A DNA stretch of 64,000 nt. Source: an uncultured Acidobacteriota bacterium. Its GTDB lineage: Bacteria > Acidobacteriota > Vicinamibacteria > Vicinamibacterales > 2-12-FULL-66-21. This document shows, one piece after another, positions 16,709 through 30,549 of the stretch. The notes beneath the pieces were generated by a model. The model saw only the letters and a list, made by a program, of their open reading frames with translations, was not told the DNA's origin and did no database searches. The DNA is taken from the NCBI GenBank assembly GCA_963774855.1, contig CAVZGT010000005.1:298714-362713 (forward strand). The letters run 5' to 3'. How positions within the stretch are numbered: the first letter of the stretch is position 1; each line of letters opens with the position of its first letter. The translations under genes and the position numbers were made by a program.

Positions 16709-16787
16709 CGCCGACCTCCTTCTTGACCGGGTGCGGCTTCCGTGTTTCGGGGAGCCAGCCTGGTGAATACCGACGGGTTACTGGTGT

Positions 16788-17315
16788 CTAGCGCTCCATC
16801 TCGGCTTGAAGCCGATGCCGGATCCGGTGGAGCCTGACGGCCACGTTGTTCTTCTCGATCTCGAACATCCCGGCCAGCTCTTCGAGCGACAGCCCTTCGA
16901 CGTGACGCAGCAGGAACAGGCTTGCGTCCTCGCTGTCCAGGGCGGCAATGGCGCGCCGAAGCCGCTCCTTCAGCAGAAAAGGTGACTGGACGGCGGCGTG
17001 CGGCGCCCGATCGTCGTAAACCGACTCCGCGTGAAGCTCCCGGCGGCGCAGCACGTCGACGGCCGCGTTGACGGCGGCGCGCCGGAAGTAGGCGGCCGGC
17101 AGCGCAACCTCCTCGACGTCTCCACCCCGGGCCAGCACGCGCAGGAAGACCGTCTGCAGGACGTCCTCGGCGTCGGCCGGACGCCCGGTGACGCGCAGCG
17201 CCGCGCGGAATACGGTCTCGTAATGGCGCTCGAACAGTTCGGCAAACCCCGCCAGCGGGGCCGTGGAAGTCACGGGAATCAGCAGTTCCTCGATTTGTGT
17301 GCTGGCTGTGGTCAC
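16788..17315 (-). CDS. ECF (sigma-24 type) RNA polymerase sigma factor
   Basis: 175 aa, GTG start. Region 2: FAELFERHYETVFRAALRVTGRPADAEDVLQTVFLRV. Region 4: LSLEELAGMFEIEKNNVAVRLHRIRHRL. The anti-sigma gene follows 80 nt downstream. Confidence 0.9.
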   Translation of the reverse strand: MTTASTQIEELLIPVTSTAPLAGFAELFERHYETVFRAALRVTGRPADAEDVLQTVFLRVLARGGDVEEVALPAAYFRRAAVNAAVDVLRRRELHAESVYDDRAPHAAVQSPFLLKERLRRAIAALDSEDASLFLLRHVEGLSLEELAGMFEIEKNNVAVRLHRIRHRLQAEMER

Positions 17316-17336
17316 CTCGTCCGCCTTACCAACCTA

Positions 17337-17822: not shown

Positions 17823-20261
17823 CTATTCACTGCGCAGTGCAACAAGAGGATCGACTCGCGAGGCGCGCCGCGCCGGTATGTAGCTCGCGACGAGCGCCAC
17901 CGCAAGCATCACGGCGGACATTCCGGCGAACGCCATCGGGTCCAGGCGCCCGACACCGAAGAGCAGCGTCTGGATATAACGAGTGAGGGCCACGGCAGCC
18001 AGCGCTCCCACGACCACGCCAACCAGCGCCACCCGGGTGCCTTGCCAGACGAACATCCGGCGCACGGTCTTTGCCTCGGCGCCCAGGGCCATGCGTACGC
18101 CGATCTCCTGCGTCCGTTGCGTCACGCCGTACCAGAGCACGCCGTACAGGCCGACCGCACCAAGGACCAGCGCGAGCACGGCGGCAATGCTGACCATGAC
18201 CATCGTGAACCACAGACTGGCCATGGCCTTGGCGGCCAGAGCCTCCATCGTGAAGATCCGATACATCGGGGAGTTCGGAACCACCTCCCGAATGATGGCG
18301 CGAACCTCCGGGGCCAGTTGGTCGGCACGGGCCGACTTCATCACGTAGGCCGGCGACGTGGACGCACCCGGCAGGTAGACCATCGGCTCCGGAGACTTGC
18401 GGCGGAGGTCGTCCACCAGGATGTCTTCGACCACGCCGATGACGGTGAACCACGTATCGGCGCCGGCGGTGGCCGGTCGCACCTTTTGACCAATCGGCTC
18501 TTCGCCAGGGAACAACGTCCTGGCGGCGGTCTCGCTGATGATCACGTTGCGAGTTCCCAGCTCTTCCTCCATCCGCTCGAAATAGCGGCCGCTCCTGAGT
18601 GCGATTCCCATCGTCTGGAAATATGCGCCGCCGGCGGCGGCGTTCCGAACGAGAGGTGCCTCCGCTCCACTCGCCTGAATCCTGGGGGTTGTGACGTTCG
18701 CGCTGCCCGCGCCCTCGTCCAGCGGCAGCGTGGAGATGAATCCAACCGATTCGACGCCGGGCAGGGCCTTCAGGCGATCCATGAACACGTACTGAAACCG
18801 CGAGATCGATGCACGATCGGTCAGATCGGGGCGGCCCGCCGCGATCTGGAACGTGAAGATTCCTTTCGTGTCATATCCGGCGTCGACTTGGCTGAGCTGC
18901 CAGACGCTGCGCATGAGCAGCGCCGCGCCAACCAGCAGGACGAGAGCCGAGGCGGTTTGCACCGCTACGAGCGCATCGCGCGCAAGGCTTCTGCGGCCGA
19001 CGATGCCTCGTCCGGCCTGCTGGAGGCTGCCGAGCCGCGAGCCCGACAGGCGGAAAGCGGGCAGCAGGCCGAACGCGCACGCGGCCAGGACCGAGAGGCC
19101 CGCGGTAACGAGCAAGGCCGTACAATCGAGGTGCGCGGCGGCGAGCCCGGCAATGGGTGCGCCGGCAAAGCCACCCGCGACCGCATCCGGCGCCGCGCGG
19201 ACCAGGAGTGGGACCCCGGCCCACGCGATGACCGCGCCAACCGCGCCTCCGGCTGCCGCGAGCAGGAGCGCGTCGGTCACTTGCGGGCGCACCAGGTCGG
19301 CTCGTCCCGCACCGAGAGCCCGGCGCACTGACAGTTCGACGCGCCGGTTCTCCGCTCTGACCGTGAACAAATTCGCCACGTTGACACAGGCGACGAGGAA
19401 GACGATGCCGACCGTGCCGAGCAGAATCCAGAGTGCCGTCGAGATCCGGCCCACGAGTTGCTCGCGCAGCGGCTTCACCACCGGCCGGTGACGTTCCATG
19501 ATCCGCACGTACGGCGCGGGTCCGCCCAGCCGCTGCTGCACCTGACGCGCGATCGGTTCGAGCTGCGCGACCAGTGCTGCGCGGTCCGTTCCCGGCTTCA
19601 TACGCGCCACCATGCGCGGCCCGAATCCGCCCGGCGTGACCTGAGCGGCGCGAATCGCCAGCGGCACCCAGAACGCGACGCGCTCGTCGGGGAAGCGGAA
19701 CTCCGGCTTCATGATGCCGATCACCTCCCGGTTCTGGCCCGCGAAGAAGTAGCTCTTGCCGATCACCTTCTCATCGGAGTTGAACCAGTTCTGCCAAAGC
19801 CAATAGCTGATGACGACGACGCGACCGTCGTCGGTAGCGGCAGGCAACCGGCCACGGAGAGGCACCGCGCCAAGCGTCGTAAAGAATGAGGGAGTGGCCT
19901 GAGTGACGAAGAGCTGGTCGACCTGCCCTTCCGCGCGTGTCGTGGACGAACCGATGCCATAAATGCCGGCGTCTTCGATCCCGGGCACGCTCTCGCGGTA
20001 CGCGAAGTAGAGCTCGTCCGGAACGCCGAACTCCTCGGGCTGATCGGTTCCCGGAGCGGTCCCTCCAATATGAACGAGCCGATCCGCATTCGGGAACGGC
20101 AGCGGCTCGAGGAGCACCGCCTTGACGACGCTGAAGATGGAGGCGTTCGCGCCGATGGCGAGCGCGAGCGTCGCCACGACGGTCAGCGTGAAGCCCGGCG
20201 TGCGGCCAAGACTGCGCGCCGAGTGCCTGAAGTCCCTGACCCACGATTCCACTGCCTTCAC
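17823..20261 (-). CDS. ADOP-type MacB/FtsX-family permease
   Basis: 812 aa, GTG start. MKAVESWVRDFRHSARSLGRTPGFTLTVVATLALAIGANASIFSVVKAVLLEPLPF.. TQEIGVRMALGAE .. VDPLVALRSE. Confidence 0.9.
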   Translation of the reverse strand: MKAVESWVRDFRHSARSLGRTPGFTLTVVATLALAIGANASIFSVVKAVLLEPLPFPNADRLVHIGGTAPGTDQPEEFGVPDELYFAYRESVPGIEDAGIYGIGSSTTRAEGQVDQLFVTQATPSFFTTLGAVPLRGRLPAATDDGRVVVISYWLWQNWFNSDEKVIGKSYFFAGQNREVIGIMKPEFRFPDERVAFWVPLAIRAAQVTPGGFGPRMVARMKPGTDRAALVAQLEPIARQVQQRLGGPAPYVRIMERHRPVVKPLREQLVGRISTALWILLGTVGIVFLVACVNVANLFTVRAENRRVELSVRRALGAGRADLVRPQVTDALLLAAAGGAVGAVIAWAGVPLLVRAAPDAVAGGFAGAPIAGLAAAHLDCTALLVTAGLSVLAACAFGLLPAFRLSGSRLGSLQQAGRGIVGRRSLARDALVAVQTASALVLLVGAALLMRSVWQLSQVDAGYDTKGIFTFQIAAGRPDLTDRASISRFQYVFMDRLKALPGVESVGFISTLPLDEGAGSANVTTPRIQASGAEAPLVRNAAAGGAYFQTMGIALRSGRYFERMEEELGTRNVIISETAARTLFPGEEPIGQKVRPATAGADTWFTVIGVVEDILVDDLRRKSPEPMVYLPGASTSPAYVMKSARADQLAPEVRAIIREVVPNSPMYRIFTMEALAAKAMASLWFTMVMVSIAAVLALVLGAVGLYGVLWYGVTQRTQEIGVRMALGAEAKTVRRMFVWQGTRVALVGVVVGALAAVALTRYIQTLLFGVGRLDPMAFAGMSAVMLAVALVASYIPARRASRVDPLVALRSE

Positions 20262-20322
20262 CTGCCACCTCGTTGATTCGCCGTTGATTCATCGGGAGAC
20301 TTCGTCCCGCCTCAACAGCCCT

Positions 20323-20349
20323 GACGCGCGAGGAGGCCGGTTATTACAC
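20323..20349 (-). promoter_or_regulatory. candidate ECF-type promoter (27-nt motif, copy 2)
   Basis: The minus strand reads GTGTAATAACCGGCCTCCTCGCGCGTC, 61 nt upstream of the GTG of permease 17823..20261. Confidence 0.35.
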
Positions 20350-20415
20350 GGTGTGCTGGAGAATTGTGGCGCCGCCGGCGGAGAGGACCGCGCTTTGCCA
20401 CGCCGAGGGCCGGAA

Positions 20416-23202
20416 CTATTCGTACTTCAGGGCGAGCATGGGATCGACGCGGACCGCGCGATATGCGGGCACGAACCCGGCTGCGAGAGCCACGAGCCCG
20501 AGCACGGCAATCGACGAGGCCAGCACGACAGGGTCGTGAAACTGCAGCCCGAACAGCAGGGTCTGTGCGGCACGCCCCACCAGGATGGCAAGCGCCAGGC
20601 CGATCGTGCCACCGGCCATCACGATCACGCCCACCTGACGGAGCACCATCCACCGCACGCCACCGCGCGTGGCGCCGAGCGCCATGCGCAGGCCGATCTC
20701 GGACGTGCGCTGCGCGACAGTGAAGGCGAGCAGCCCGTAGAGGCCGATGGCAGCCACGAGAGTCGCGAGCGTCGCGAAGGCGCCGGTCATCACGCTCATC
20801 AACCGTTGCGGCGTCGTCGCTCCACGCATCGCGTCGTCCATCGTCCGAAGCCCTTCGATCGGCAGGTTCTGGTCGAGCCGCCGCATCACCCCCCGGATCG
20901 CCATGATGGTCTGGCCGGCGTCGAGCGACGTCCGAACGTAGAAGGTCATGACGTTCGGCGTGTTGGTGCTCTGGCGGTGCGGGACGAAATACATCGGCGG
21001 CGCGGCGTCGCTGAGGTTGCTGTGCTTGAAGTCCCGCACCAGGCCGACAATCTCGACGTCGAGCGCCGGCGTTCCCCGAGACATCCGCTTGCCGGTCACA
21101 TCGCCCGAAAGGCCGAACTTCCTGGCAAACTGTTCGTTGACGATGGCGACCCTGGCCGCATTCTCCGAATCGGCAGCGGTGAACTCGCGGCCGGCAATCT
21201 GTGGAATTCCAAGTGTTCGAAAGTAGCCGGGACCGATTTCGTCGTACCGCGTGCCGCGGTCCGCGGCGCGTCCGGCATCGAAGCCCTCCACGAATACGTC
21301 CGTGACGCGGACGTCTCCCGAGAGCAGCGGCGTGGACGATGACGTGACGGCCGTCACACCGGGCAGCGCGGCCATCTCCTCCTCGAGACGATCGAACAGC
21401 GCCGCCGAGCGTGGACTGGTGTAGCCGTTGCGCTGGGGTGCGATCCCGAACATGACCATGCCATCGATCCTCAGTCCGGGATCGACACGGCTGATGTTGC
21501 CAAGGCTCTTCGTGAACAAACCTGCCAGAACGATGAGCACCATCGACAGCGCCACCTGCGCCATCGCGAGCGAGACGCGAAAGCGCGCCCCGGCGCGGCC
21601 TCCGGCCGGTTGCCCAGTCTGGGCTTTGAGCGCCGCGCGCACGTCCGGCCGTGCGGCGTGAAGCGAGGGGAGCAACCCGACCGCCACGCTCGCGCCAAGC
21701 GCCAACGCGCCCGTGATGATGAGCGTGGATGTGTCCAGCGGCAGGGCCAGCACCGACGCTTCGCCGCCGAGCGTCGCGCGAACCAGGTCCATCGTCCACT
21801 GCGCGACGAAGAGACTGGCCATCGCGGCGATCAACGCCAGCACCGAGGACTCGGTCAGGAGTTGAGCGATGAGACGCCCGCGAGTGGCCCCAAGAGACAA
21901 ACGCGTGGCCAGCTCCTTCGCGCGCGCGGCCGCGCGAGCAAGCAGGAGGTTCGCCACGTTGACACAGGCGATGAGCAGGACGAGCGTGGTGACGGCCAGC
22001 AGCAGGGTCAGCGGTACCCGAGCGTCCGTCGCGAAACGGCTCTGTCCGCGCGACCCGGGGTCGAGACGGATGCCCCTCGCTCTGAACTCCGCCATCATCG
22101 GATCGCTCATGCCCTCCTGGAGCGGCACCTCGACCTCGTTGGTGATGGCGCGATAGGGCACGTCAATCGCCGCGCGCGCCTGTTCCAGCGCGACGCCTGG
22201 CTTCAGACGGGCGAACAGGTAGACCCAATATCCGCGCCGGTTCTCAGGTGGGCTGCGCGGGTTGGGCGCCAGGCGCCAGCGCATCGTGATCGGCACGAAG
22301 ACGTCCGCCTTCAGCCCGACGGTCGTTCCGTCAAACCCCGGCGGCGCGACGCCGACGATGGCCATGGGGTGTCCGTTGACGGCGATCGTGTCGTCGAGGA
22401 TGTCCGCGCGCCCGCCCATGTGGCTCTGCCAGTAGGCGTGACTCAGCACGACGGCCTCGGGCCCGTCCACCGTGCGATCGTCGCTCGATCCCAGCAGGCG
22501 GCCGAGCGCGGGCCGCAGACCGAGCACGGGAAAGTAGCTGCCCGACACGAACAGGCCCTGGCTTTTCGTGGTCTGGTCGCGATAACCCAGATTGACGGCG
22601 AGGTCGCGGTGCGCGGCGATGCCGGTGAAGACCGTCTGGAGGCGCTCCAGGTCCCGGAACATGGGATAGCTGAACACCGCCGCGCATTCACCCATGCTGC
22701 CGCAGGACGTCGGTCCGGACCGCGCCCCGGGCGACACGAGATTCACCAGCCGGCGCGGCTCGGGAACCGGCAAGGGCTGGAGGAGCAGTTGGTTGAACAG
22801 GGAGAACATCGCCGTGTTGGCGCCGATGCCGAGCGCGAGCGTCAGCACGGCCACCGCGGTGAAGCCTGGCGCACGTCTCAACATGCGGAGGGCGTAACGG
22901 ATGTCGTGCCCCCGGTCGGTGAGGAACTCCATGCCCATCATGCGCCGCCTCCTCCGCTCGTCGATCGCCACACATTCGAGGCGCGAGCTCTCGACATCGC
23001 CGAAGCGGCGCAAGGTCAGCTCGCGGGCGCGCTCCGGAGATTCGCCGCGCTCGATCAGTTCGCGGATCCGCATGTCCAGGTGAAAGGACAATTCGGCCGC
23101 CACGTCACGGCCGGGATCGAGCCCGAAGAGCCCACGGAAACGCCTCCACCGCGCCGCCACGTCAGCCTCCGCCGCTCGAGGGTTGTGCGTCCAATGCGGC
23201 AA
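20416..23202 (-). CDS. ADOP-type MacB/FtsX-family permease
   Basis: 928 aa. AARWRRFRGLFGLDPGRDVAAELSFHLDMRIRELIERGESPERARELTLRRFGD .. GFTAVAVLTLALGIGANTAMFSLFNQ .. TSEIGLRMALGAT .. VDPMLALKYE. ATG 23202 overlaps padR by 41 nt. GTG 23160, just after the padR stop, is an equally plausible start. Confidence 0.9.
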   Translation of the reverse strand: MPHWTHNPRAAEADVAARWRRFRGLFGLDPGRDVAAELSFHLDMRIRELIERGESPERARELTLRRFGDVESSRLECVAIDERRRRRMMGMEFLTDRGHDIRYALRMLRRAPGFTAVAVLTLALGIGANTAMFSLFNQLLLQPLPVPEPRRLVNLVSPGARSGPTSCGSMGECAAVFSYPMFRDLERLQTVFTGIAAHRDLAVNLGYRDQTTKSQGLFVSGSYFPVLGLRPALGRLLGSSDDRTVDGPEAVVLSHAYWQSHMGGRADILDDTIAVNGHPMAIVGVAPPGFDGTTVGLKADVFVPITMRWRLAPNPRSPPENRRGYWVYLFARLKPGVALEQARAAIDVPYRAITNEVEVPLQEGMSDPMMAEFRARGIRLDPGSRGQSRFATDARVPLTLLLAVTTLVLLIACVNVANLLLARAAARAKELATRLSLGATRGRLIAQLLTESSVLALIAAMASLFVAQWTMDLVRATLGGEASVLALPLDTSTLIITGALALGASVAVGLLPSLHAARPDVRAALKAQTGQPAGGRAGARFRVSLAMAQVALSMVLIVLAGLFTKSLGNISRVDPGLRIDGMVMFGIAPQRNGYTSPRSAALFDRLEEEMAALPGVTAVTSSSTPLLSGDVRVTDVFVEGFDAGRAADRGTRYDEIGPGYFRTLGIPQIAGREFTAADSENAARVAIVNEQFARKFGLSGDVTGKRMSRGTPALDVEIVGLVRDFKHSNLSDAAPPMYFVPHRQSTNTPNVMTFYVRTSLDAGQTIMAIRGVMRRLDQNLPIEGLRTMDDAMRGATTPQRLMSVMTGAFATLATLVAAIGLYGLLAFTVAQRTSEIGLRMALGATRGGVRWMVLRQVGVIVMAGGTIGLALAILVGRAAQTLLFGLQFHDPVVLASSIAVLGLVALAAGFVPAYRAVRVDPMLALKYE

Positions 23203-23512
23203 AGACGGCCGCCGCGTAGCGGCGCCAGTTCGCTGTCTCCACGTTCAACTGCGTGCGTCCCCGCCTGGTGAGCGAATAGAACTTCGCCTGGCGATTGTTC
23301 TCCGAGACGCCCCAGCTGGCATCGATCCAGCCGCGTTCCTCGAGCCGGTGGAGGGCCGGATACAACGTCCCTTCGCCGACGGCCAGGACGTCGGACGTGG
23401 CCTGCTCGATCCACCGCGCGATGGCATAGCCATGCGCCGGGCCCCAGCTCAAGGCTCTCAGGATCAGTAAGTCGAACGTGCCTCGCAGAATCTCTGGTGG
23501 CGGCTGCGGCAT
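23162..23512 (-). CDS. PadR family transcriptional regulator
   Basis: 116 aa. [56 protein letters not shown]. Upstream lies a possible TTGCGT-17-TATCCT promoter. Confidence 0.9.
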   Translation of the reverse strand: MPQPPPEILRGTFDLLILRALSWGPAHGYAIARWIEQATSDVLAVGEGTLYPALHRLEERGWIDASWGVSENNRQAKFYSLTRRGRTQLNVETANWRRYAAAVFAALDAQPSSGGG

Positions 23513-23605: not shown

Positions 23606-24425
23606 CTAATGGGCGGTTTGCCGCGCGTTGCGGTGTCGCGGACCGCCAACACGAACGACGAGCTTCGCCACCGCGGTGACGACACTCAGTGCCATGCGCA
23701 GCGGAAAGACGCCGGCGGCCTGATCCGCGCTCGGGGCTCGCGGCATACGACCGTGCCGCTTCGGCAGTCAATGCCATGGCCTGCGGCAGCGACGCACATG
23801 CGGTCAGAAAACTTGGCAGGCCCGCGGACCGATCCTCTGTGTAGTCCAAAACGTCGTCGACGATCTGGCACTGCATCACGATCCGGAAGAGCGTTTCCAC
23901 GTTGGGGTCGCAATGAGTCGCCCTGATGCCCTCTTCGAGGCGCTCGCCGTTCAGCGCGATCGCGGTAACCGCCGCCAGGGACACCCGCGCGACCGCTTCG
24001 CGGTACGAACGAACCTCGTCGAAACGCCGATGATCCCCGCCGATTGACGGGCGTCGTCTTTCCAGTTCCCGAAGCCGGCCGAGATATTCCTCCATCCACG
24101 ACTCCAGGCCGGCCTTCTCCAGCCGCTGCCGGATCGCCTGGTATTCCGCTTCGCACAGATCCTTGTCATCCCAGGCCGCATTCGTGCACGCTTGAAAATC
24201 CAGGAACGTTGCCAGCTCGCTGATTCTCTTTCGCGGCAATCGCTGCGAATTGCGAAGCACATGAAGCGTGTCGAGCGCAACGATGCACAGGACTCGCAAC
24301 GGCGTCTTGGGTGCGGCGTAGAACAAGAGCGGCAGGCCGCGGAGAAGGCAGGTGAGCGACACGAGGCTGGCCCGTAGCCGTCCGTAGCTCGCGCCGTGAC
24401 GCCGTGTTCGATCCACGTCAGACAT
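23606..24425 (-). CDS. hypothetical protein with two Asp-rich motifs (isoprenoid-synthase-like?); 3' end uncertain, probable frame break near 23733
   Basis: ORF 23055..24425. The first ~230 aa look coding (WDDKD at ~86; FRIVMQCQIVDDVLDYTEDRSAGLPSF resembles the second DDxxD motif of polyprenyl synthases). The tail is Arg-rich and overlaps padR, so it is spurious. A shift at the G4 run 23733-23736 gives ..SADQAAGVFPLRMALSVVTAVAKLVVRVGGPRHRNARQTAH, with a stop at 23606. Confidence 0.4.
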
Positions 24426-25308
24426 GACACAGCACGACTTCTCGAGGACACCTCCAGCGGATCGGCACGAGATCGCTGACCCCGCGGCTGACGATCAGGC
24501 GTGTCGGACCACGCTGATGACTCAAGAAGCAATACGGGTAGAAGATCGCCCCCGGAAACAGCCGGTCTCCGTATTCCCAGCCGACCAACTGGCAGCCATG
24601 CAGATGCCCCGCCAGGACGAGGTCGTAGCCGTCATGGCGGGACGTCTTCCAGATGCGCGGGTTGTGCGCGCAGAGGATGCGGACATGCCCATCGTCGTGC
24701 GGCGCGGCTTCAGGGCCGGAGACCGCGATCACTCGCGCCCCATGCATCACGCGTGCGATGCCATCATGGATCCATTGCCCGCCGCCGTGCACCACGGCCT
24801 CGCGGACGCGGTTCATGCCGATCCGCAGGTCGTGGTTGCCACCAATCGCAAGGACCCGAGCGACTTCGCGGAGGCTGGCAACCAGGTCACTCAGCTTGCT
24901 CAACTCGGAGGGACGGTCCACCAGGTCGCCCCCCAGCAGCACCACATCCGGACTGCAGCGAGTCACGCCGTCCATCACCTGCCGGCACAGCGTGTCGGAA
25001 CGACCGTTCCTGAGGTGAATGTCGCTGACATACAGCAGCCGGCACGCGTCGGGCCGCGCCGACAGCCGCTCTTCGCGGACGTGCAAGGCTTGATTCAGCC
25101 CGATTTGCAGCGGTCCGGCAAACCATGGGGATCCGCCGCCCGAGGGCCCTTCGACTCGCTCCCGCTCGCTCAGGGCACGCTGCTGGAAAGTCGGGCTCCT
25201 GATCAACGGACTGCGACCTCTGAAGTGGCCTTCATCGCGCGCCCTCGCCAAGGACGAGGACCGAGACCTCGCGGACGCGCGGCCCGTCGAGCTCCACCAG
25301 GAAGACAC
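24418..25308 (-). CDS. metallophosphoesterase (calcineurin-like)
   Basis: Motifs LLYVSDIHL, LLGGDLVD, AIGGNHD, LAGHLHG. ATG 25308 overlaps yjbQ by 77 nt, so the true start is probably internal (for example TTG 25206). Confidence 0.8.
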   Translation of the reverse strand: MSSWWSSTGRASARSRSSSLARARDEGHFRGRSPLIRSPTFQQRALSERERVEGPSGGGSPWFAGPLQIGLNQALHVREERLSARPDACRLLYVSDIHLRNGRSDTLCRQVMDGVTRCSPDVVLLGGDLVDRPSELSKLSDLVASLREVARVLAIGGNHDLRIGMNRVREAVVHGGGQWIHDGIARVMHGARVIAVSGPEAAPHDDGHVRILCAHNPRIWKTSRHDGYDLVLAGHLHGCQLVGWEYGDRLFPGAIFYPYCFLSHQRGPTRLIVSRGVSDLVPIRWRCPREVVLCHV

Positions 25309-25705
25309 GCTGCCAGCGCCCGAGCTGCAGGCGGCCTTCGGCGACGTTCAGCGACGCCGACGACCCGAGCAGCAGGGCGCGGCAATGCGCGTGGCCGTTC
25401 GACCGTTCGCCCGGGGCCAGGTTCACGGTCCGCACGTCCATGTCATCGTGGCGATAGGGCGCGTCCCTCGGCGCCGCCCGGGCGAGCAAGGCGTCGAAGT
25501 CCGCGAGCAGCAGCGGCTCGTGCTCGTTGACGACGATGGCCGTCGTGGTGTGCAGGCTCTGGATGTTGACGAGGCCGGCGCGGATGCCCGCCTCGGCGGC
25601 CAGCGCCTCGATCCGGGCCGTCAGGTCGATGAACTCCGTCGCGCGCCCGGTCGCGACGCGGATCCGGGTGTGGTGGCAGATTGCCGCGGGCACGAGTGTC
25701 TCCAT
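25232..25705 (-). CDS. yjbQ: YjbQ/UPF0047 family protein (secondary thiamine-phosphate synthase-like)
   Basis: 157 aa. SLHTTTAIVVNEHEP .. GHAHCRALLLGSSASLNVAEGRLQLGRWQRVFLVELDGPRVREV matches the YjbQ pattern. GGAGG RBS. Confidence 0.8.
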   Translation of the reverse strand: METLVPAAICHHTRIRVATGRATEFIDLTARIEALAAEAGIRAGLVNIQSLHTTTAIVVNEHEPLLLADFDALLARAAPRDAPYRHDDMDVRTVNLAPGERSNGHAHCRALLLGSSASLNVAEGRLQLGRWQRVFLVELDGPRVREVSVLVLGEGAR

Positions 25706-25724
25706 GGGCCGTCGTCCTCCTGTC

Positions 25725-25820
25725 GCGCACCGGCCGATTCGACCGGCGTGCGAGAGTATCGCCCGAATAACCCGTTGGCGTCGTGACGCGCCGGTGAGGG
25801 TTGCGTGAGATGTCTGTGAG
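25725..25820 (-). promoter_or_regulatory. conserved leader/promoter element, copy 1, with GTGAG repeats phased at 11 bp
   Basis: Plus-strand GTGAC/GTGAG pentamers start at 25783, 25794, 25805 and 25816, exactly 11 bp apart. Blocks CCGGCGTGCGAGAGTATCGCCCG (25743-25765) and GCGCACCGGCCGATTC (25725-25740) recur upstream of uppS. It ends 20 nt before the yjbQ ATG. Confidence 0.55.
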
Positions 25821-25852
25821 GCCGGACGCCACTAACGGTTTTGAAACCGGCT

Positions 25853-26674
25853 CTACGCTTCGCCGAGGCGGTGTCTCAACAATCGGGCGATCTCCCGGAA
25901 ACTCTGAAACGACAACCCCGCCTGGGCGAGGTGAAGGATGAGCGGGCGCCGGAACACCGAGGTGAAGCTCGCGGCCAGAACGCGCGTGACCGCGTCGTCG
26001 TCGTAGACGTCCAGGACGAGCTCGAGGGTTTCGGCGAGCTTACGTGGGCCGGTGCGGAGTAGACAAGTGGCCAGCAGGGCTCGCACGTCGTCGGCACGTC
26101 GCCAGATCAGTGGGCGGCTCGAGTCATGAACGGTCTCGAAGTCGAACCAGTTTGCGGCTCCGGCCTCGCCCTTCGACGAATGCTCAGGGCGCCCCGAGCC
26201 CCGCCGAGGGGCGAGGTCGACCAGCACGTTCTCGGCCATGGCGTCTCCGTGGGTGAATCCCAGGCGATGGAACTCCGCAAGTGCGACGACCGCCAGTTCG
26301 ATGGCCCTCTTCCGGACCGGCTCCTCCAGCTCCGGATTCTCCAGCAAGGACGCCAGCGTCTGTCCAGCGAGGCAGGGCAGGACGAGCACGCCGCCGGCAT
26401 CGATCCGAATCGAAGCAGCGCGGAGGTCTCGGTAGACGCGGCGCTCCCGCTCCTCCCAATCCCGCTGGGGGAGGACCCGCACACCGCCATCCAGGATCCT
26501 CACCAGCACACCGCCCATCCAGACCAGGAGAGGCGCGTAGAACGAGCGGTGCTTTCGTACCTGCGGCGTGCCGTCCTGGTCGGCGATCGAAACCTTCGAG
26601 TACCTCGCGGATCGGAGCAGCCGCCCCAGAGTCAGGCACAGGGCAAAGTAGGAACGCTCTGCCAGTTCCCGCAC
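25853..26674 (-). CDS. protein-kinase-like fold protein (Kdo/WaaP lipopolysaccharide-kinase-like)
   Basis: 273 aa. Catalytic-loop-like FTHGDAMAENVLVD, followed by WFDFET (DFG-equivalent). No Gly-rich P-loop was recognised. Confidence 0.6.
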   Translation of the reverse strand: MRELAERSYFALCLTLGRLLRSARYSKVSIADQDGTPQVRKHRSFYAPLLVWMGGVLVRILDGGVRVLPQRDWEERERRVYRDLRAASIRIDAGGVLVLPCLAGQTLASLLENPELEEPVRKRAIELAVVALAEFHRLGFTHGDAMAENVLVDLAPRRGSGRPEHSSKGEAGAANWFDFETVHDSSRPLIWRRADDVRALLATCLLRTGPRKLAETLELVLDVYDDDAVTRVLAASFTSVFRRPLILHLAQAGLSFQSFREIARLLRHRLGEA

Positions 26675-26678
26675 CCAC

Positions 26679-27041
26679 TCAATCTCCGGAGAGCACGCAG
26701 GCGATGCCGATGATGATCAGGACCATGCCGACGACGTGAGGGCGGCGCATCTGTTCGCCGAAGACGTAGACGCTCGCGAGGGGGATCAGCACGTAGTTGA
26801 GGCTGGTCAGCCCGTACGCAATCGACAACGGGGCGACTCGCAGAACGTAGAGCCAGCAGACCGTCGAAGCGATCCAGGCGGCGAACCCCGACAGGACATG
26901 CACGTTCCGGGCGGCGGCGAGCAGGAACTCGACGCGCCCGAGCGGCGCGAGGTGCTGGGCGCCTGACTTCAGAAAGAGCTGTCCGACCGCCGAGCACGCC
27001 ACCGTCGCCAGGAGCAGCCCGATCGTCTTTCCTTGGATCAT
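26679..27041 (-). CDS. small 4-TM EamA/SMR-like membrane protein (ArnE/ArnF-like)
   Basis: 120 aa with four hydrophobic spans (TIGLLLATVACSAVGQLFL, VLSGFAAWIASTVCWLYVL, AYGLTSLNYVLIPLASVYVF, VVGMVLIIIGIACVL). It lies 4 nt from uppS and 5 nt from the kinase-like gene. Confidence 0.7.
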   Translation of the reverse strand: MIQGKTIGLLLATVACSAVGQLFLKSGAQHLAPLGRVEFLLAAARNVHVLSGFAAWIASTVCWLYVLRVAPLSIAYGLTSLNYVLIPLASVYVFGEQMRRPHVVGMVLIIIGIACVLSGD

Positions 27042-27044
27042 CGA

Positions 27045-27896
27045 TTACCTGTCTCGTGTCGAATGCGATCGATGGGCGAGGTTCGCGTTGTCATGGACGC
27101 CTCCGTATCGCCGATCGCGACCGGCAAAAGCCTGAACGGCGGAGGCGAGATCGGCCTCGTTGAAGTCCGGCCACTGGACGTCGGTGAAGTAGAGCTCGGC
27201 GTAGGCCGACTCCCAAAGCAGGAAGTCACTCAGTCGTTGTTCTCCGCCGGTGCGGATGAGCAAATCCACGTCACGCGTCCCGCCCGGTGCGTGGATGGCC
27301 TCCCGCAGAGATCGCTCGAAGGCCTGCCGCGTCGGGGGTATCCCATTGACGAGACGGCCGGCCGCCGCCACCAGCGCCTCACGGGCCGAATAGTCGATCG
27401 CAACCCGGAGATGGAGCGAGGTTCCTTCGCGCGTACGCTCCTCGACGTGCTCGATGCTGCGTCGAAGGGAACCCGGGATCCGGTCCCGGCGCCCTATCGC
27501 GCTCCAGCGTACACCGCTGTCGGCCAGGTGGGCGCACTCGGAGTCCAGGTGGTGCTGGAGCAGCAGCATCAGGTTGTCCACTTCGCTCCGCGGACGGCGC
27601 CAATTGTCCGATGAAAACGCGTAGAGCGTAAGAGTGGTGATCCCCAACGCCGGCGCGGACTCCACCGTCCGTCGGACCGCCGCGGCTCCGGCGACGTGGC
27701 CCTCCTCCCTGGGTAGACCGCGCATGACCGCCCAGCGGCCGTTCCCGTCCATGTTGATCGCGACATGGAATCGGTCGCGATTGATCGCGACATGGAATCG
27801 GTCCCGGCCTCCGTCCATTGGCTCGGCGTACCGGGCTGGGTCCGATTGTTCGGGGTGCCGCGTCCGCGAATCCAGGTACTTCGTGTCACAGAGCAT
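27045..27896 (-). CDS. uppS: undecaprenyl/isoprenyl diphosphate synthase (cis-prenyltransferase)
   Basis: [54 protein letters not shown]. The start is taken at ATG 27896 (or 27818). The listed GTG 27971 lies inside a conserved non-coding leader and two hairpins. Confidence 0.9.
27754..27803 (-). repeat. in-frame 27-nt tandem duplication inside uppS
   Basis: TTGATCGCGACATGGAATCGGTC occurs at 27754-27776 and again at 27781-27803. This gives ..[24 protein letters not shown], which duplicates the residues just before the catalytic DGNGRW motif. Confidence 0.9.
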
Positions 27897-27920
27897 CTCC
27901 AGAAAAGTGTAGTGCCGACC

Positions 27921-27960
27921 TTCAGGTCGGCCCGGGGCTGGCCTAAAGGCCAGCGCTAGT
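27921..27960 (-). repeat. two adjacent tetraloop hairpins (REP-like) in the uppS leader
   Basis: GCCGACC-TTCA-GGTCGGC and CTGGCC-TAAA-GGCCAG, both perfect stems, separated by CCGGGG. Confidence 0.6.
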
Positions 27961-27965
27961 CTCGG

Positions 27966-28104
27966 GCGCACCGGCCGATTCCGCCTTCGCCCAGGCTTCG
28001 GCGCGACAAGTCGGCCGCCGGCGTTCGACAGGATCGCCCGGACGGCCCGCTGGAGTCTTCACGCACAGGTGAGGGTTACGTGAGATGTCGGTGAGATTGA
28101 CGTG
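27966..28104 (-). promoter_or_regulatory. conserved leader/promoter element, copy 2, with GTGAG repeats phased at 11 bp
   Basis: GTGAG at 28069, 28080 and 28091, plus GTGCG at 28102. GGTGAGGGTTACGTGAGATGTCGGTGAG matches 25793-25820 at 26/28. GCGCACCGGCCGATTC (27966-27981) is identical to copy 1. CCGGCGTTCGACAGGATCGCCCG (28018-28040) matches at 20/23. A ~34-nt insertion is present relative to copy 1. Confidence 0.55.
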
Positions 28105-28112
28105 CGATCAGC

Positions 28113-28225
28113 AGGGTTCCGCGAGGTTCCACGAGGTTCCTCGGGGTTCCACAGGGTTCTGTTCCGCAGGGTTCGGGCAGGTTCTCTGGGTTCTCTGTCC
28201 CAGGGCGCAGAACCCAGGACAGAAT
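28113..28225. repeat. 10-bp phased GGTTCC tandem array (second copy) with terminal inverted repeat
   Basis: aGGGTTCCgcg aGGTTCCacg aGGTTCCtcg gGGTTCCaca GGGTTCTGTTCCgca GGGTTCgggca GGTTCTCTGGGTTCT.. This is followed by CTGGGTTCT..AGAACCCAG and TCTGTCC..GGACAGA inverted repeats. It shares the GGTTCTGTTCCGC unit with 9564-9661. Confidence 0.85.
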
Positions 28226-28270
28226 TCCGGGTCCACGGGCTCCGGGCCAGCGGAACTTACCAGTGCTCGC

Positions 28271-29641
28271 TCAGGGCGGGCGGCGCATCAGGCCGAGCGC
28301 CAACCCCAGTCCGAACAGCGCCGTCTCGCCGAAGGCAATGATCGCCTGCGAAGTCCGGCCGAAATCCGGTTCCCCGATCAGCCGCCCCAACGGCTCGAGC
28401 GTCGCGCGAGAGCCGTCGGCGGCACGGGCAATCACGTGAATGGTGCCGCCGACGAGCGGCCGTCCGGCAAGCGACAGGACGAGCCCGGCCAGCCCGCACA
28501 CCGACGCGGTGATCGCGGCGGCGCGCAGCAACCGGCGGCCTCGAGGCGCCGCCATACCGCCCTGAACTCCCCGCGTGGCGATGGCATACCCGATCCCCGC
28601 GGCTCCGCCGATGACGAATCCCTCGAGCGTCCCGCCGATGCCGATGCGCAAGCCGACGAGCGCTTCGAGGCTCCATCGGGCGATCCATTGGACGGCGAGG
28701 CCGACGAGCCCGCCGCCGAGCGACGCGCCGGCGACGAGGGCGGCCGGCTTCGCGGAGCGCGCGCCCGCCTCGGCCAGCGACAGTCCGCCTCCAACCCCGG
28801 CGCCGCCGAGTGCGCCAAAGACGCCGCCGAGGACGGCCAGCACCGGCGCGATCGCAACCGTGGCGGCACTTCCCGGCGCGGCGGCGAGGATCAACCCTCC
28901 CGAAGCGCCGGCCGCGACGCCCGCGAGACCGCCGCCCGCCGCGGCGCCCGCCCATCGTCTGGCGGCGATTCGCGCGGCGCGGCGCAGCCGGAGCCGCAGC
29001 AGCTCGCGCGCGACGGCAAGCGGCGCCGGCGAGCCGAGCACCGGCACCTCTCCCGCGCCGGGCACGTCCCAGCGCGCATCGCGCAGCAGCGCGCGCGCGC
29101 CGGCATGACCGGGGCGGGTGCCGAGGCGGCTCAGCGCATCCGGCGTTCCCAGCGCATGCAGCAGCTCGGCCGCCTCGCGGCGGTCGTCGTCGGTGGCGCC
29201 GGCATGGGTGAGACGATCCAGCAGCGGTTCGTAGGCATCACCAGCCGGGGCTTCGATGGCCTGCGGCGCTCCGGCAGCCTGCGGCCGCGGCACCGTCACC
29301 CGCTCCGGCCACACGCCATCGTCCTCTTCTTCGATGACGTCCGCGAAGACGAACCGGTAGCCGTGGCGCGCGACGGTGCGGATGAAGCGCGGCTCGCGCG
29401 AATCGTCGGCGAGGGTGCGGCGGAGCGTCCTGACGGCCTGGCTCAGCGCGCTGTCGGAGACGATGACGTCCGTCCAGACGCGATCGAAGATGTCGCGGCG
29501 GTGCACCGCCTCGTGACGCCGCTCGACCAGCAGGACGAGCAGGTCGAAATAGCGCGGGATGATCGGCACCTCGCGCCCGTCGCGCAGGAGGAGCCGGCGC
29601 CGGGGCGAGAGCGTGAAATCACTGAAGCGGTATCGAATCAC
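28271..29641 (-). CDS. ToxR/CadC-like membrane-anchored transcriptional regulator (OmpR/PhoB-type winged helix plus Gly-rich membrane domain)
   Basis: GTG 29641 overlaps the upstream stop (GTGA). VIRYRFSDFTLSPRRRLLLRDGREVPIIPRYFDLLVLLVERRHEAVHRRDIFDRVWTDVIVSDSALSQAVRTLRRTL..RFIRTVARHGYRF. No receiver domain. The C-terminal ~200 aa are Gly/Ala-rich hydrophobic (GGLAGVAAGASGGLILAAA, VLAVLGGVFGALGGAGVGGG, GGGLVGLAVQW, GFVIGGAAGIGYAI). The 621-aa listed ORF is over-extended. Confidence 0.75.
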   Translation of the reverse strand: MIRYRFSDFTLSPRRRLLLRDGREVPIIPRYFDLLVLLVERRHEAVHRRDIFDRVWTDVIVSDSALSQAVRTLRRTLADDSREPRFIRTVARHGYRFVFADVIEEEDDGVWPERVTVPRPQAAGAPQAIEAPAGDAYEPLLDRLTHAGATDDDRREAAELLHALGTPDALSRLGTRPGHAGARALLRDARWDVPGAGEVPVLGSPAPLAVARELLRLRLRRAARIAARRWAGAAAGGGLAGVAAGASGGLILAAAPGSAATVAIAPVLAVLGGVFGALGGAGVGGGLSLAEAGARSAKPAALVAGASLGGGLVGLAVQWIARWSLEALVGLRIGIGGTLEGFVIGGAAGIGYAIATRGVQGGMAAPRGRRLLRAAAITASVCGLAGLVLSLAGRPLVGGTIHVIARAADGSRATLEPLGRLIGEPDFGRTSQAIIAFGETALFGLGLALGLMRRPP

Positions 29642-30549
29642 GACGGTTGGCTCTGGTGCAGCGAAGAAGCACCGGATAGCTCTCGACGCCTCGCCATCGG
29701 CCACTCGCGTGCGAGCGGCGGAAGCAGCCGCAGCGACGTGCGGAGCAGCGCCGTCCAGCGCGCGAACGCCCGCACGTCGCGCGCGCGCCACTCGAAGCCG
29801 TACGCCCGGCGGATCGGTGACGGAAGCGATCCGATCGTCAGCAGCTGCATCGCCCGGAACGCCGGCCAGGCCACGTACCACCGCGGCGGGTAGAGCACCG
29901 CTCGTGCGAGCGCCCGGCTGGTGTCGGTCACGACGATGCTCCCGCTCGCCAGCATCTCGCGCATGTAGGCGTCGAGCTGCGCCGAGTCGCGCGGGAGCCA
30001 TCCAGCCGGCATCGCCAGCAGCGGCTCCATGATCGCCGCCTCCGAGCAGTACCGATCCCGCTCGCGAAGGGTCAAGGGGCCTACGAGCAGCTCGTAGACG
30101 AGCGGAATCGACTCGAGCAGCGTGGAGTGCACCCACCGCTGGAGGTCAGGATGGTGAGCGGAGTAGGCCTCGCCCGCCCCATCATTACTTACTGACGGCG
30201 GGACGCGGCCGCGCACCCGGTCGTGAATCGCGTTGATGCCCGCAGCGGCGGCGATCATCTGGTCCGTCTCGCCGAACGTGAGCGACAGCATCGCGCGAAC
30301 GGTCGAGTGCAGCCGCCGGAAGCTGGAGAGAAGGCCGCCGGAGAAGGAACTGTGCTCATGCACGCCGGCGACAACCGCGGGATGCGCCAGCTGGAGCAGG
30401 ATGGCACGGCCCCAGCCGGCCACCACGATCACCTCGCGGTTGACCTTCCAGGTGATGCTTTCGGGCCCGGCCCGCACGTGGTCGGATCGGAGCAGGCGCG
30501 CGCGCACGGCGGCGCGATGGCGTTCGAGTGAATCTGTTGCCGAAGTCAT
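29638..30549 (-). CDS. DUF2236 / MpaB-like oxygenase family protein
   Basis: 303 aa. SITWKVNREVIVVAGWGRAILLQLAHPAVVAGVHEHSSF is the family-typical N-terminal block. Confidence 0.7.
   Translation of the reverse strand: MTSATDSLERHRAAVRARLLRSDHVRAGPESITWKVNREVIVVAGWGRAILLQLAHPAVVAGVHEHSSFSGGLLSSFRRLHSTVRAMLSLTFGETDQMIAAAAGINAIHDRVRGRVPPSVSNDGAGEAYSAHHPDLQRWVHSTLLESIPLVYELLVGPLTLRERDRYCSEAAIMEPLLAMPAGWLPRDSAQLDAYMREMLASGSIVVTDTSRALARAVLYPPRWYVAWPAFRAMQLLTIGSLPSPIRRAYGFEWRARDVRAFARWTALLRTSLRLLPPLAREWPMARRRELSGASSLHQSQPS

Follow-up and report, generated by a model that had tools for sequence, protein, structure and literature searches.

The question raised by this locus is whether a uppS gene and its neighbours, lying within 64,000 nucleotides (nt) of DNA from an uncultured Acidobacteriota bacterium (contig CAVZGT010000005.1, positions 298,714 to 362,713; the whole stretch is termed the window here, and its own numbering is used throughout), work together on a dedicated polyprenyl-linked envelope lipid. 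A prediction made without database searches had grouped six co-directional genes into two adjacent operons and read them as a module of this kind: uppS with the genes for an ArnE-like membrane protein and a WaaP-like kinase, followed by yjbQ with the genes for a phosphoesterase and a protein bearing a DDxxD motif. We find that one regulated unit spans positions 23606-30549 and extends beyond these six genes, with an MpaB-type oxygenase gene (mpaB) and the gene of a CadC/ToxR-like regulator added at its 5' side, and that the invariant core of the system is the phosphoesterase–DDxxD pair, not the six genes. We put at roughly 0.45 the probability that this unit is a single regulon by which a dedicated polyprenyl-(di)phosphate-linked lipid is handled on the cytoplasmic side of the inner membrane. 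Its parts, with all module genes on the minus strand, succeed one another as mpaB, regulator gene, uppS–eamA–kinase operon and yjbQ–phosphoesterase–DDxxD operon:

29638 to 30549, minus strand: mpaB, encoding a 303-amino-acid (aa) protein with an MpaB/Lcp-type oxygenase domain (PF09995, 6.8e-51).
28271 to 29641, minus strand: gene for a CadC/ToxR-like one-component regulator of ~456 aa (Trans_reg_C, 4.9e-16).
28055 to 28095, minus strand: control site 1, upstream of uppS, CTCAC-N6-CTCAC-N6-CTCAC plus GTGAAGAC in 11-bp phase.
27045 to 27896, minus strand: uppS, cis-prenyltransferase (PF01255, 6.4e-70), start uncertain, with ATG 27896 in frame as assembled.
26679 to 27041, minus strand: eamA, encoding a small membrane protein of the EamA/SMR kind (120 aa), a candidate lipid flippase (EamA, 30.8 bits).
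25853 to 26674, minus strand: gene for a small atypical kinase of protein-kinase-like fold, 273 aa (APH, 3.1e-5).
25780 to 25820, minus strand: control site 2, ~90 nt upstream of yjbQ, three CTCAC units plus GTCACGAC in 11-bp phase.
25232 to 25705, minus strand: yjbQ (UPF0047), 157 aa (PF01894, 3.2e-32).
24418 to 25206, minus strand: metallophosphoesterase gene of the YaeI/LpxG type (PF00149, 1.7e-10), start uncertain, TTG 25206 being the first start past the yjbQ stop.
23606 to 24425, minus strand: DDxxD gene of an unnamed family, its product ending in a hydrophobic helix, with a +1 frameshift as assembled.

The two operons are tied together by their upstream sequences. Their leaders can be aligned over ~120 nt and share a 22-mer and a 16-mer, each of which occurs exactly twice in the 64 kb against expectations of ~0 and 0.37, in agreement with the paralogous leaders described originally. 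The core of both leaders is CTCAC-N6-CTCAC-N6-CTCAC followed by GT(C/G)A(A/C)GAC, an array of direct repeats with an 11-bp period. A search of 1.66 Mb of related loci plus the window, both strands counted, with TCAC-N7-TCAC-N7-TCAC returned 22 matches including overlapping ones (18 distinct sites), where a rough estimate of the chance expectation is ~0.1, and every one of these matches sits upstream of a uppS, eamA, yjbQ or phosphoesterase gene. The site is also present in each of the 9 distinct loci of the searched set, window counted, that bear a CadC-like regulator. The occurrence of the same site before these genes in many relatives upholds the proposed co-regulation and supports a common CTCAC-repeat site as the element through which both operons would be controlled. 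The CadC/ToxR-like regulator is the presumed binder of the repeats, and 11-bp-phased direct repeats would suit the binding mode of CadC/ToxR-type DNA-binding domains. Comparison with Rfam, for the whole window at gathering scores and for the region at E <= 5, gave no credible match, and the leaders are therefore not a known RNA family. A scan for sigma-70 promoters yielded no promoter-like site, and the only terminator-like site lies inside the kinase gene, fewer than in shuffled sequences.

The layout within the unit is compact. The family scans placed all six genes of the original prediction on the minus strand, in two operons and with the domains claimed for them, in a region of ~66-68% GC. 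The spacers of 4-5 nt given for them need correction: uppS and eamA are separated by 3 nt and eamA and the kinase gene by 4 nt, and the stop of the phosphoesterase gene and the start of the DDxxD gene share 8 nt (ATGTCTGA). In the same manner, the stop of mpaB overlaps the start of the regulator gene. The module genes are under purifying selection, with ratios of non-synonymous to synonymous substitution rates (dN/dS) of 0.10-0.56.

The leaders hold further structure beside the repeats. Between the CTCAC site and the ribosome-binding site of yjbQ, at 25720-25760, there is a conserved hairpin-like element (GCACGCCGG…GAATCGG…CCGGTGCGC) that is also seen in the leaders of six related loci (L003, L004, L013, L046, L049 and L050) and that could be a structure of the 5' untranslated region. 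The version in the uppS leader carries a 34-nt insertion in its loop. This insertion, together with the GC-rich hairpins GCTGGCC-TTTA-GGCCAGC and GCCGACC-TGAA-GGTCGGC that accompany it at 27905-28010, has the appearance of a small, repetitive palindromic element lodged in the leader. In L050, the leader (6790-6990 of that locus) contains ~3 tandem copies of the unit CCGGGCCGGACCTGAAGGCCAGCT.

The conservation of the parts was assessed through a scan of one genome per species with the DDxxD protein, in which neighbours within 10 kb were counted by iterated profile searches; an all-versus-all clustering of open reading frames (ORFs) was noisy, owing to antisense ORFs in GC-rich DNA, and was not used for the counts. 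The scan returned 43 loci (L003-L045) from Acidobacteriota (Vicinamibacterales, Polarisedimenticolia and Solibacteraceae), Planctomycetota and Gemmatimonadaceae. In 39 of the 41 loci with usable upstream sequence, in three phyla, the gene immediately upstream of the DDxxD gene is that of the phosphoesterase, whereas the other neighbours are patchy: the kinase gene adjoins the DDxxD gene in 14 of 43 loci, mpaB is found in 9, yjbQ in 8, the CadC-like regulator gene in 6 and eamA in 5, and uppS and the GT2, DUF2334 and methyltransferase genes to be described below in none. It is this difference that identifies the pair as the invariant core. The kinase gene is located downstream of the pair in Acidobacteriota and ahead of it, as kinase–phosphoesterase–DDxxD, in Planctomycetota, and 27 of the 43 loci present the pair with no kinase gene in range. 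Sequence identity across phyla amounts to 60-83% for the phosphoesterase and, in the comparison of Acidobacteriota with Planctomycetota, to 43-59% for the DDxxD protein. Such values are unusual for phyla so far apart and suggest either horizontal spread or very strong constraint.

The fixed six-gene module that had been envisaged does not survive this comparison. Absence of co-conservation had been named in advance as the result that would count against it, and uppS is missing from 43 of the 43 pair loci. The order seen in the window recurs only in its own narrow clade, and there without eamA (mpaB–regulator–uppS–kinase–yjbQ–phosphoesterase–DDxxD in L046, L050 and L057). In our reading, the window combines a local selection of components from an as yet uncharacterised system of Acidobacteriota, Gemmatimonadota and Planctomycetota, which would have two cores: the coupled phosphoesterase–DDxxD pair, and an operon of the form (uppS)–DUF2334 deacetylase–methyltransferase–GT2–(eamA)–kinase. 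The kinase, eamA, yjbQ, mpaB and regulator genes occur next to either core.

The phosphoesterase of the first core is readily recognized. It scores 42.1 bits against PF00149 (cutoff 21.5) and contains all five metal-binding motifs (DIH, GGDLVD, GNHD, AHNP and GHLH), so the calcineurin-like assignment stands. Its best family matches are YaeI (9.8e-18), the E. coli member of COG1408, and LpxG (1.1e-13), but at 64.5 bits against a cutoff of 188 and 51.3 against 350 it is neither of these proper, and a sequence search of the PDB returned no match.

The DDxxD protein has no match in Pfam or NCBIfam, and its family, which lacks a Pfam model, is large: clustering at 90% identity gives >1000 groups, and clustering at 50%, among 1.8 billion proteins, gives 268. 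An AlphaFold model of the family, built on an 85-sequence alignment, has eleven helices, with a predicted local distance difference test (pLDDT) score of 91.5 and a predicted template-modelling (pTM) score of 0.88. In a Foldseek comparison of this model with the PDB, 48 of the 50 top matches were class I isoprenoid enzymes or UbiA, among them octaprenyl diphosphate synthase, aristolochene synthase, pentalenene synthase and HpnC, all at the low scores discussed below. Twelve residues are invariant in the 85 sequences (L44, R45, N83, D87, E123, Y142, R143, Q188, D191, D192, D195 and D199). The second Asp-rich motif that had been read in the segment IVDDVLDYTED is thereby substantiated, since D191, D192 and D195, and D199 in addition, are among these residues; the corresponding QxxDDxxDxxxD lies at the C-terminal end of helix 8, with an invariant N/D cluster ~100 residues earlier. 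The possible first motif, WDDKD, fares differently: only D87 is invariant, K89 is conserved in at least 90% of the members and the residue between them varies. The hydrophobic helix at the C-terminus suggests a membrane tether.

As assembled, the window contains no intact ORF for this protein of ~270 aa. The frame opened by the ATG at 24425 continues to 23055, through padR, the TAG at 23606-23608 closes a different frame, and a full-length alignment with homologues of ~270 aa is obtained solely for a composite of both over the 820 nt of 23606-24425. The original description is right about the presence of both segments in the protein, but not about its reading frame, which is broken as assembled. 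The DNA alignment attributes the break to one extra C at ~23717-23718 (GGCCGCC, against GG-CGCC in L046, L047 and L050). Single-base indels are also found in other module genes of sister long contigs, where they split yjbQ in L001/L004, uppS in L046 and mpaB in L050, and this makes an assembly error a plausible cause of the frameshift.

The uppS product is a cis-prenyltransferase, with 235.6 bits against PF01255 (cutoff 27) and 223.4 against TIGR00055 (cutoff 109.55), and its best specific model, PRK14839, falls just under its cutoff (328.3 against 334). All the catalytic motifs are present in the translation (the Asp of DGNGRWA, FSxxNWxRP and RTGGExRxSxFLLW), and we take their residues to play the roles of their counterparts in E. 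coli UppS. The protein belongs to a tight clade, with 80-94% identity over the 120 best clusters; members labelled as Gemmatimonadota are ~85% identical, again a high value for so distant a phylum. In the 9 contexts sampled, the genes of this clade are found in dedicated surroundings and never next to frr or cdsA, which supports a placement of this uppS outside the usual housekeeping context. Apart from the window-like order given above, these surroundings are the ones that define the second core: uppS–DUF2334–methyltransferase–GT2–eamA–kinase in L052 and L134, the same without eamA in L048 and L135, and mpaB–regulator–yjbQ–uppS–DUF2334–methyltransferase–GT2–kinase in L049. The best match of the DUF2334 protein of these relatives is a model for GlcNAc-phosphatidylglycerol deacetylase. 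The GT2–deacetylase–methyltransferase block that usually stands between uppS and eamA is missing in the window, the first operon of which would hence be a reduced form of the usual one.

The start of uppS also differs from the one first assigned, a GTG at 27971, as this codon falls within the conserved leader. In relatives, the coding region opens with a conserved GTG within TTGTGACACGAAG, and the N-terminal extension that it adds is conserved as well. The same GTG of the window (27889) is out of frame through a 1-nt deletion, the segment 27870-27896 being one base short relative to L046 and L050 (AAGTAGCCTGG there, AAGTACCTGG in the window), and an ATG located 7 nt upstream, at 27896, is in frame. 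An RNA leader or an upstream ORF 5' of the uppS ATG was considered and rejected, this segment being an N-terminal coding extension that is in frame in L048, L050, L052 and L133. Within the gene, an in-frame tandem duplication of 27 nt (27750-27803) immediately precedes the catalytic DGNGRWA. It was missed by Tandem Repeats Finder, there being only two copies, and was confirmed by reading of the sequence; it is shared by P0274 and P0276, on other contigs, and absent from P0271, L046 and L050.

The eamA product meets only the generic EamA family, at 30.8 bits against a cutoff of 28.2. Its best NCBIfam models are ArnF and ArnE, with 52.4 bits against a cutoff of 99 and 42.8 against 92, respectively, so that, of the ArnE/ArnF-like protein originally proposed, the EamA/SMR kind is retained and the specific family is not. 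Neither is the pairing typical of ArnE and ArnF in evidence: there is a single eamA gene, no neighbourhood contains a GT-C transferase and GT2 and deacetylase partners are found in relatives only. The gene is cleanly absent from L046, in DNA of ~97% identity (26676-27046 of the window against 7702-7715 of L046), and from L050 and L057, in which uppS is directly followed by the kinase gene; this pattern points to the recent gain or loss of exactly one gene.

The kinase presents a comparable case. It matches APH at 24.3 bits (cutoff 23.2), holds HGDAMAENVLVD and conserves the hallmarks of the protein-kinase-like superfamily, namely the catalytic Lys, the helix-C Glu, the HxDxxxxN loop and the metal-binding Asp. 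Its homologues form two subfamilies of ~22% mutual identity that share the catalytic Lys, the Glu, HGDxxxxN and DFE/DFD, with K41, E77, H142-G-D144, N149 and D178-F-E invariant across both. The closest solved structures by profile are kinases of the Bud32 type (Bud32/TP53RK) and PknB (best E 4.8e-5). The kinase-like fold of the original prediction is therefore confirmed but its WaaP/Kdo affiliation is not, because PF06293 remained unmatched at E <= 0.01; a precomputed PF06293 match exists for 6 of 120 homologues among the matches listed. An AlphaFold model of the kinase from a shallow alignment was poor (pLDDT 67), and its Foldseek matches were meaningless. Several homologues (P0404, P0411, P0425 and P0454) carry variable low-complexity insertions (PRR…GSGRPEHSSKGEAG; DPSTLREPQGRPE…) between the catalytic loop and the DFE motif (residues ~155-172) or near the N-terminus, and AlphaFold confidence collapses at these points. 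In the 62 informative metagenome loci centred on the kinase gene, the gene directly upstream is eamA in 35, GT2 in 17, the DDxxD gene in 8, uppS in 1 and unrecognisable in 1, and the gene beyond eamA is GT2 wherever the sequence extends that far, with the exception of one locus in which the phosphoesterase–DDxxD pair takes its place. These counts support a bridging role for the kinase, which would serve pair-type and GT2-type operons alike.

The regulator has an N-terminal winged-helix domain and, with 4-5 hydrophobic segments in residues 249-452, a C-terminal multi-pass membrane region. CadC is its best NCBIfam match (3e-15), below the cutoff of that model, and the alignment with the L049 homologue begins at residue 166 of the maximal ORF. 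Two CadC-like regulator genes are found near the module in L004 (= L001) and in L013; in L004, eamA–kinase and yjbQ–phosphoesterase–DDxxD are each preceded by one copy and have a CTCAC site of their own. The mpaB gene adjoins module genes in L046, L049, L050 and L051, besides the 9 genome loci counted above; MpaB itself cleaves a farnesyl chain. The YjbQ assignment is sound, with both family models above their cutoffs (TIGR00149, 104.8 against 67.75; PF01894, 111.5 against 27).

The flanks are unrelated to the module. Upstream lies a glucuronyl-esterase-like gene, and downstream are padR, which shows no non-synonymous change, two long, duplicated genes for MacB/FtsX-type permeases (20416-23202 and 17823-20288, within a padR–permease block at 17823-23512) and, beyond these, an extracytoplasmic function (ECF) sigma factor with its FecR/zf-HC2 anti-sigma partner at 15062-17333. 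Membership of padR and the permeases in the unit was rejected, as they adjoin the module in no relatives but the closest and permeases of this kind abound in these loci; padR–permease pairs do recur near the module in several relatives, and this may merely mirror the abundance of these permeases in Acidobacteriota. A link to anti-phage defence was likewise rejected, a defence library having given only marginal matches to the kinase domain.

None of the known systems compared with the locus has this gene set, and the phosphoesterase–DDxxD pairing was not found in the literature searched for the gene set and for uppS paralogues. The closest parallel for a uppS gene inside a dedicated cluster is uppS2 (CD2762) of C. 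difficile, a second cis-prenyltransferase gene that lies in the PSII anionic-polymer locus and is believed to serve this locus specifically; the ordinary uppS of that organism is located between frr and cdsA (PMC4973711). The partners here are different, however, and consist of a flippase-like protein and an atypical kinase, plus GT2, deacetylase and methyltransferase genes in relatives, with no large polysaccharide locus. For the phosphoesterase, the relevant comparison is with UpsH (YpbG) of B. subtilis, a COG1408 metallophosphoesterase under SigM control. Acting on the cytoplasmic side, UpsH releases undecaprenyl phosphate from diphosphate-linked intermediates, and the authors of that study predict a location of its homologues within envelope-stress regulons (PMC11898649). 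UpsH and LpxG are calcineurin-like phosphoesterases that cleave lipid-linked diphosphates at the cytoplasmic face, and the window enzyme is of the same general type, but it scores far under the YaeI and LpxG cutoffs and is obligatorily paired with a DDxxD protein that UpsH and LpxG lack. The gpgSDF operon of P. aeruginosa and hexSDF of C. difficile combine a synthase, a deacetylase and a flippase for the production of amino-sugar lipids (PMC12713373). Like these operons and ArnC/D/E/F, the relatives of the module join a glycosyltransferase, a GpgD-like DUF2334 protein and a small flippase-like protein, and it is in these relatives, with their GT2, deacetylase and eamA genes, that the lipid-linked-sugar logic of the original prediction becomes visible. 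The differences from gpgSDF and hexSDF are nevertheless substantial: the glycosyltransferase is a GT2 and not a GT4 enzyme, the flippase candidate is EamA/SMR-like and not of the AglD2/YbhN type, a methyltransferase, the kinase and often uppS are added, and the window lacks both synthase and deacetylase, whose genes, together with that of the methyltransferase, are present in L052, L049, L134 and many metagenome loci.

The two remaining comparisons concern single proteins. The DDxxD protein resembles the class I isoprenoid synthases in its all-helical bundle and in the local alignment of QxxDDxxDxxxD with the second Asp-rich motif of IspA, and departs from them in its shorter length (~270 aa), in the absence of a conserved first motif, in its hydrophobic C-terminal helix and in its phosphoesterase partner. 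The regulator shares with CadC and ToxR an N-terminal winged helix followed by a membrane region, but its C-terminal half is a Gly/Ala-rich multi-pass membrane domain instead of one transmembrane helix plus a periplasmic sensor, and its gene is translationally coupled to that of an MpaB-type oxygenase.

A scheme can be postulated from these observations in which UppS would make a cis-polyprenyl diphosphate, the membrane-tethered DDxxD protein would bind prenyl diphosphate through its Asp-rich motif, the phosphoesterase would cleave the lipid-linked diphosphate, the kinase would phosphorylate a small-molecule or lipid hydroxyl and EamA would flip the product. In full versions of the system, GT2 would add an amino sugar to the lipid, and the deacetylase and methyltransferase would then modify that sugar. 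We favour the view that the phosphoesterase and the DDxxD protein act as a complex, in which the latter would supply a prenyl-diphosphate pocket, because of their strict co-occurrence and translational coupling.

Several results weigh against reading the unit as a dedicated polyprenyl-lipid regulon. Outside the clade of the window itself, uppS was never encountered within 10 kb of the pair (0/43), several GT2-type operons have no uppS in 3-5 kb of upstream sequence and uppS precedes the DUF2334 gene in some of them only. Because many GT2-type operons lack an upstream uppS, the lipid acceptor need not be polyprenyl phosphate. No neighbourhood contains a GT-C-type final transferase or a PAP2 phosphatase, and no homologue of GT2, DUF2334 or the methyltransferase is found anywhere in the 64-kb window. 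The substrates of all the module proteins are putative, the scheme has no part for yjbQ and mpaB, and the DDxxD gene is frameshifted as assembled. The isoprenoid-synthase fold of the DDxxD protein is likewise only partly borne out: its nearest structural neighbours are of this class, but the similarity is weak (E 0.08-1.2, TM 0.41-0.48, probability up to 0.96, with no match at E <= 0.001). The reference member of the family does not match PF00348 (polyprenyl_synt), which is matched weakly by 3 of the 85 sequences (best E 0.042); an hhalign comparison with E. coli IspA covered 19 columns, the motif only, at 1.4% probability; and the family profile gave a single chance match (E 1.7) among PDB sequences.

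The most serious alternative is that the unit has no dedicated product and serves the homeostasis of the carrier lipid under stress. As an analogue of the SigM response of B. subtilis, a CadC-like sensor of free undecaprenyl phosphate shortage would induce UppS, a cytoplasmic lipid-diphosphate hydrolase formed by the phosphoesterase and the DDxxD protein, a polyprenol kinase and a flippase. The SigM control of UpsH and the envelope-stress regulons predicted for its homologues, the integration of the regulator in the membrane and the presence in the window of uppS, eamA and the kinase gene, yet of no sugar-handling genes, are all congruent with such a role. In most relatives, however, the kinase and eamA genes follow GT2, deacetylase and methyltransferase genes, which argues for a specific glycolipid, and the cross-phylum identity of UppS (80-94%) and of the phosphoesterase (60-83%) resembles that of a transferable cassette more than that of core homeostasis. 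Given also that the action of the kinase on polyprenol is purely putative, we regard this alternative as unlikely, though well worth keeping in mind. A terpenoid metabolite or signal pathway is a poorer candidate still. UppS would provide its substrate, the DDxxD protein would ionise it in the manner of a class I synthase, the MpaB/Lcp-type oxygenase would cleave a double bond and the product would be sensed by, or would control, the regulator. The synthase-like fold, the invariant DDxxDxxxD at the end of helix 8 and the N/D cluster ~100 residues before it would agree with this, and so would the translational coupling of mpaB to the regulator gene, its recurrence by the module and the activity of Lcp, a characterised member of the MpaB/Lcp family described as a rubber oxygenase cleaving double bonds in poly(cis-1,4-isoprene) (PMC5522427). 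Yet uppS and the DDxxD gene hardly ever lie side by side (0/43 loci), the phosphoesterase that always accompanies the latter would be needless for a terpene synthase, mpaB is found in 9 of 43 loci only and the fold match is weak.

It is also conceivable, though very unlikely, that the kinase and the phosphoesterase constitute a protein-phosphorylation switch acting on a protein, possibly the DDxxD protein itself, with the lipid genes as regulated targets. The protein kinases Bud32/TP53RK and PknB are indeed the closest solved relatives of the kinase, and in Planctomycetota kinase–phosphoesterase–DDxxD makes up a three-gene operon of its own. Against this, the motifs of the phosphoesterase are of the YaeI/LpxG type and not of the PPP type, and the families that it matches best are those of lipid and nucleotide diphosphatases; the kinase matches APH, a family of small-molecule kinases, and has a DFE-type metal site; and 27 of 43 loci have the pair with no kinase gene within 10 kb. 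There remains the view that the genes have no functional unity at all, uppS being an ordinary gene placed by chance beside unrelated hypothetical genes and the module being in decay in the window. The loss of the sugar-handling genes, the frameshift in the DDxxD gene, the 1-nt deletion that removes the usual uppS start, the 27-nt duplication in the same gene and the lack of eamA in the closest relatives could all be taken as signs of decay. This view is very improbable in the face of a control site shared by both operons and by many relatives, dN/dS values of 0.1-0.35 against L046 and L050, and the recurrence of uppS–kinase–yjbQ–phosphoesterase in four independent assemblies (the window, L046, L050 and L057). 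Moreover, the indel pattern in sister long contigs resembles assembly error and not gene decay, and the uppS clade is never next to frr or cdsA.

Within the preferred reading, that of a regulon for a dedicated polyprenyl-(di)phosphate-linked lipid, a more specific proposal may be advanced, tentatively and in the expectation that it may well prove wrong. The pair, kept together in three phyla, might be an unrecognised two-subunit enzyme that acts, on the cytoplasmic side of the membrane, on polyprenyl diphosphate or on intermediates linked to it, its DDxxD subunit being a diverged branch of the isoprenoid-synthase fold repurposed for the binding of lipid diphosphates. Together with UppS, the kinase, the flippase and a CadC-like sensor coupled to an MpaB-type oxygenase, it might then form an inducible pathway that supplies or modifies a polyprenyl-phosphate envelope lipid.

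The production of nearly all bacterial surface polymers is limited by polyprenyl-phosphate carriers. BacA and the PAP2 enzymes, the undecaprenyl-diphosphate phosphatases known so far, act at the outer face of the membrane, and the processing, on the inner face, of the undecaprenyl diphosphate that is made there is, to our knowledge, poorly understood. A phosphoesterase that always travels with a partner resembling isoprenoid-diphosphate-binding proteins is a candidate for cytoplasmic-face chemistry on such lipids, and its candidacy is strengthened by the occasional linkage of the pair to a dedicated UppS, a kinase and a flippase-like protein. The candidate regulator now has a candidate binding site, the CTCAC repeats, and the DDxxD family, which abounds in soil Acidobacteriota, organisms with a little-known envelope biology, receives a first hypothesis at the level of both context and fold.

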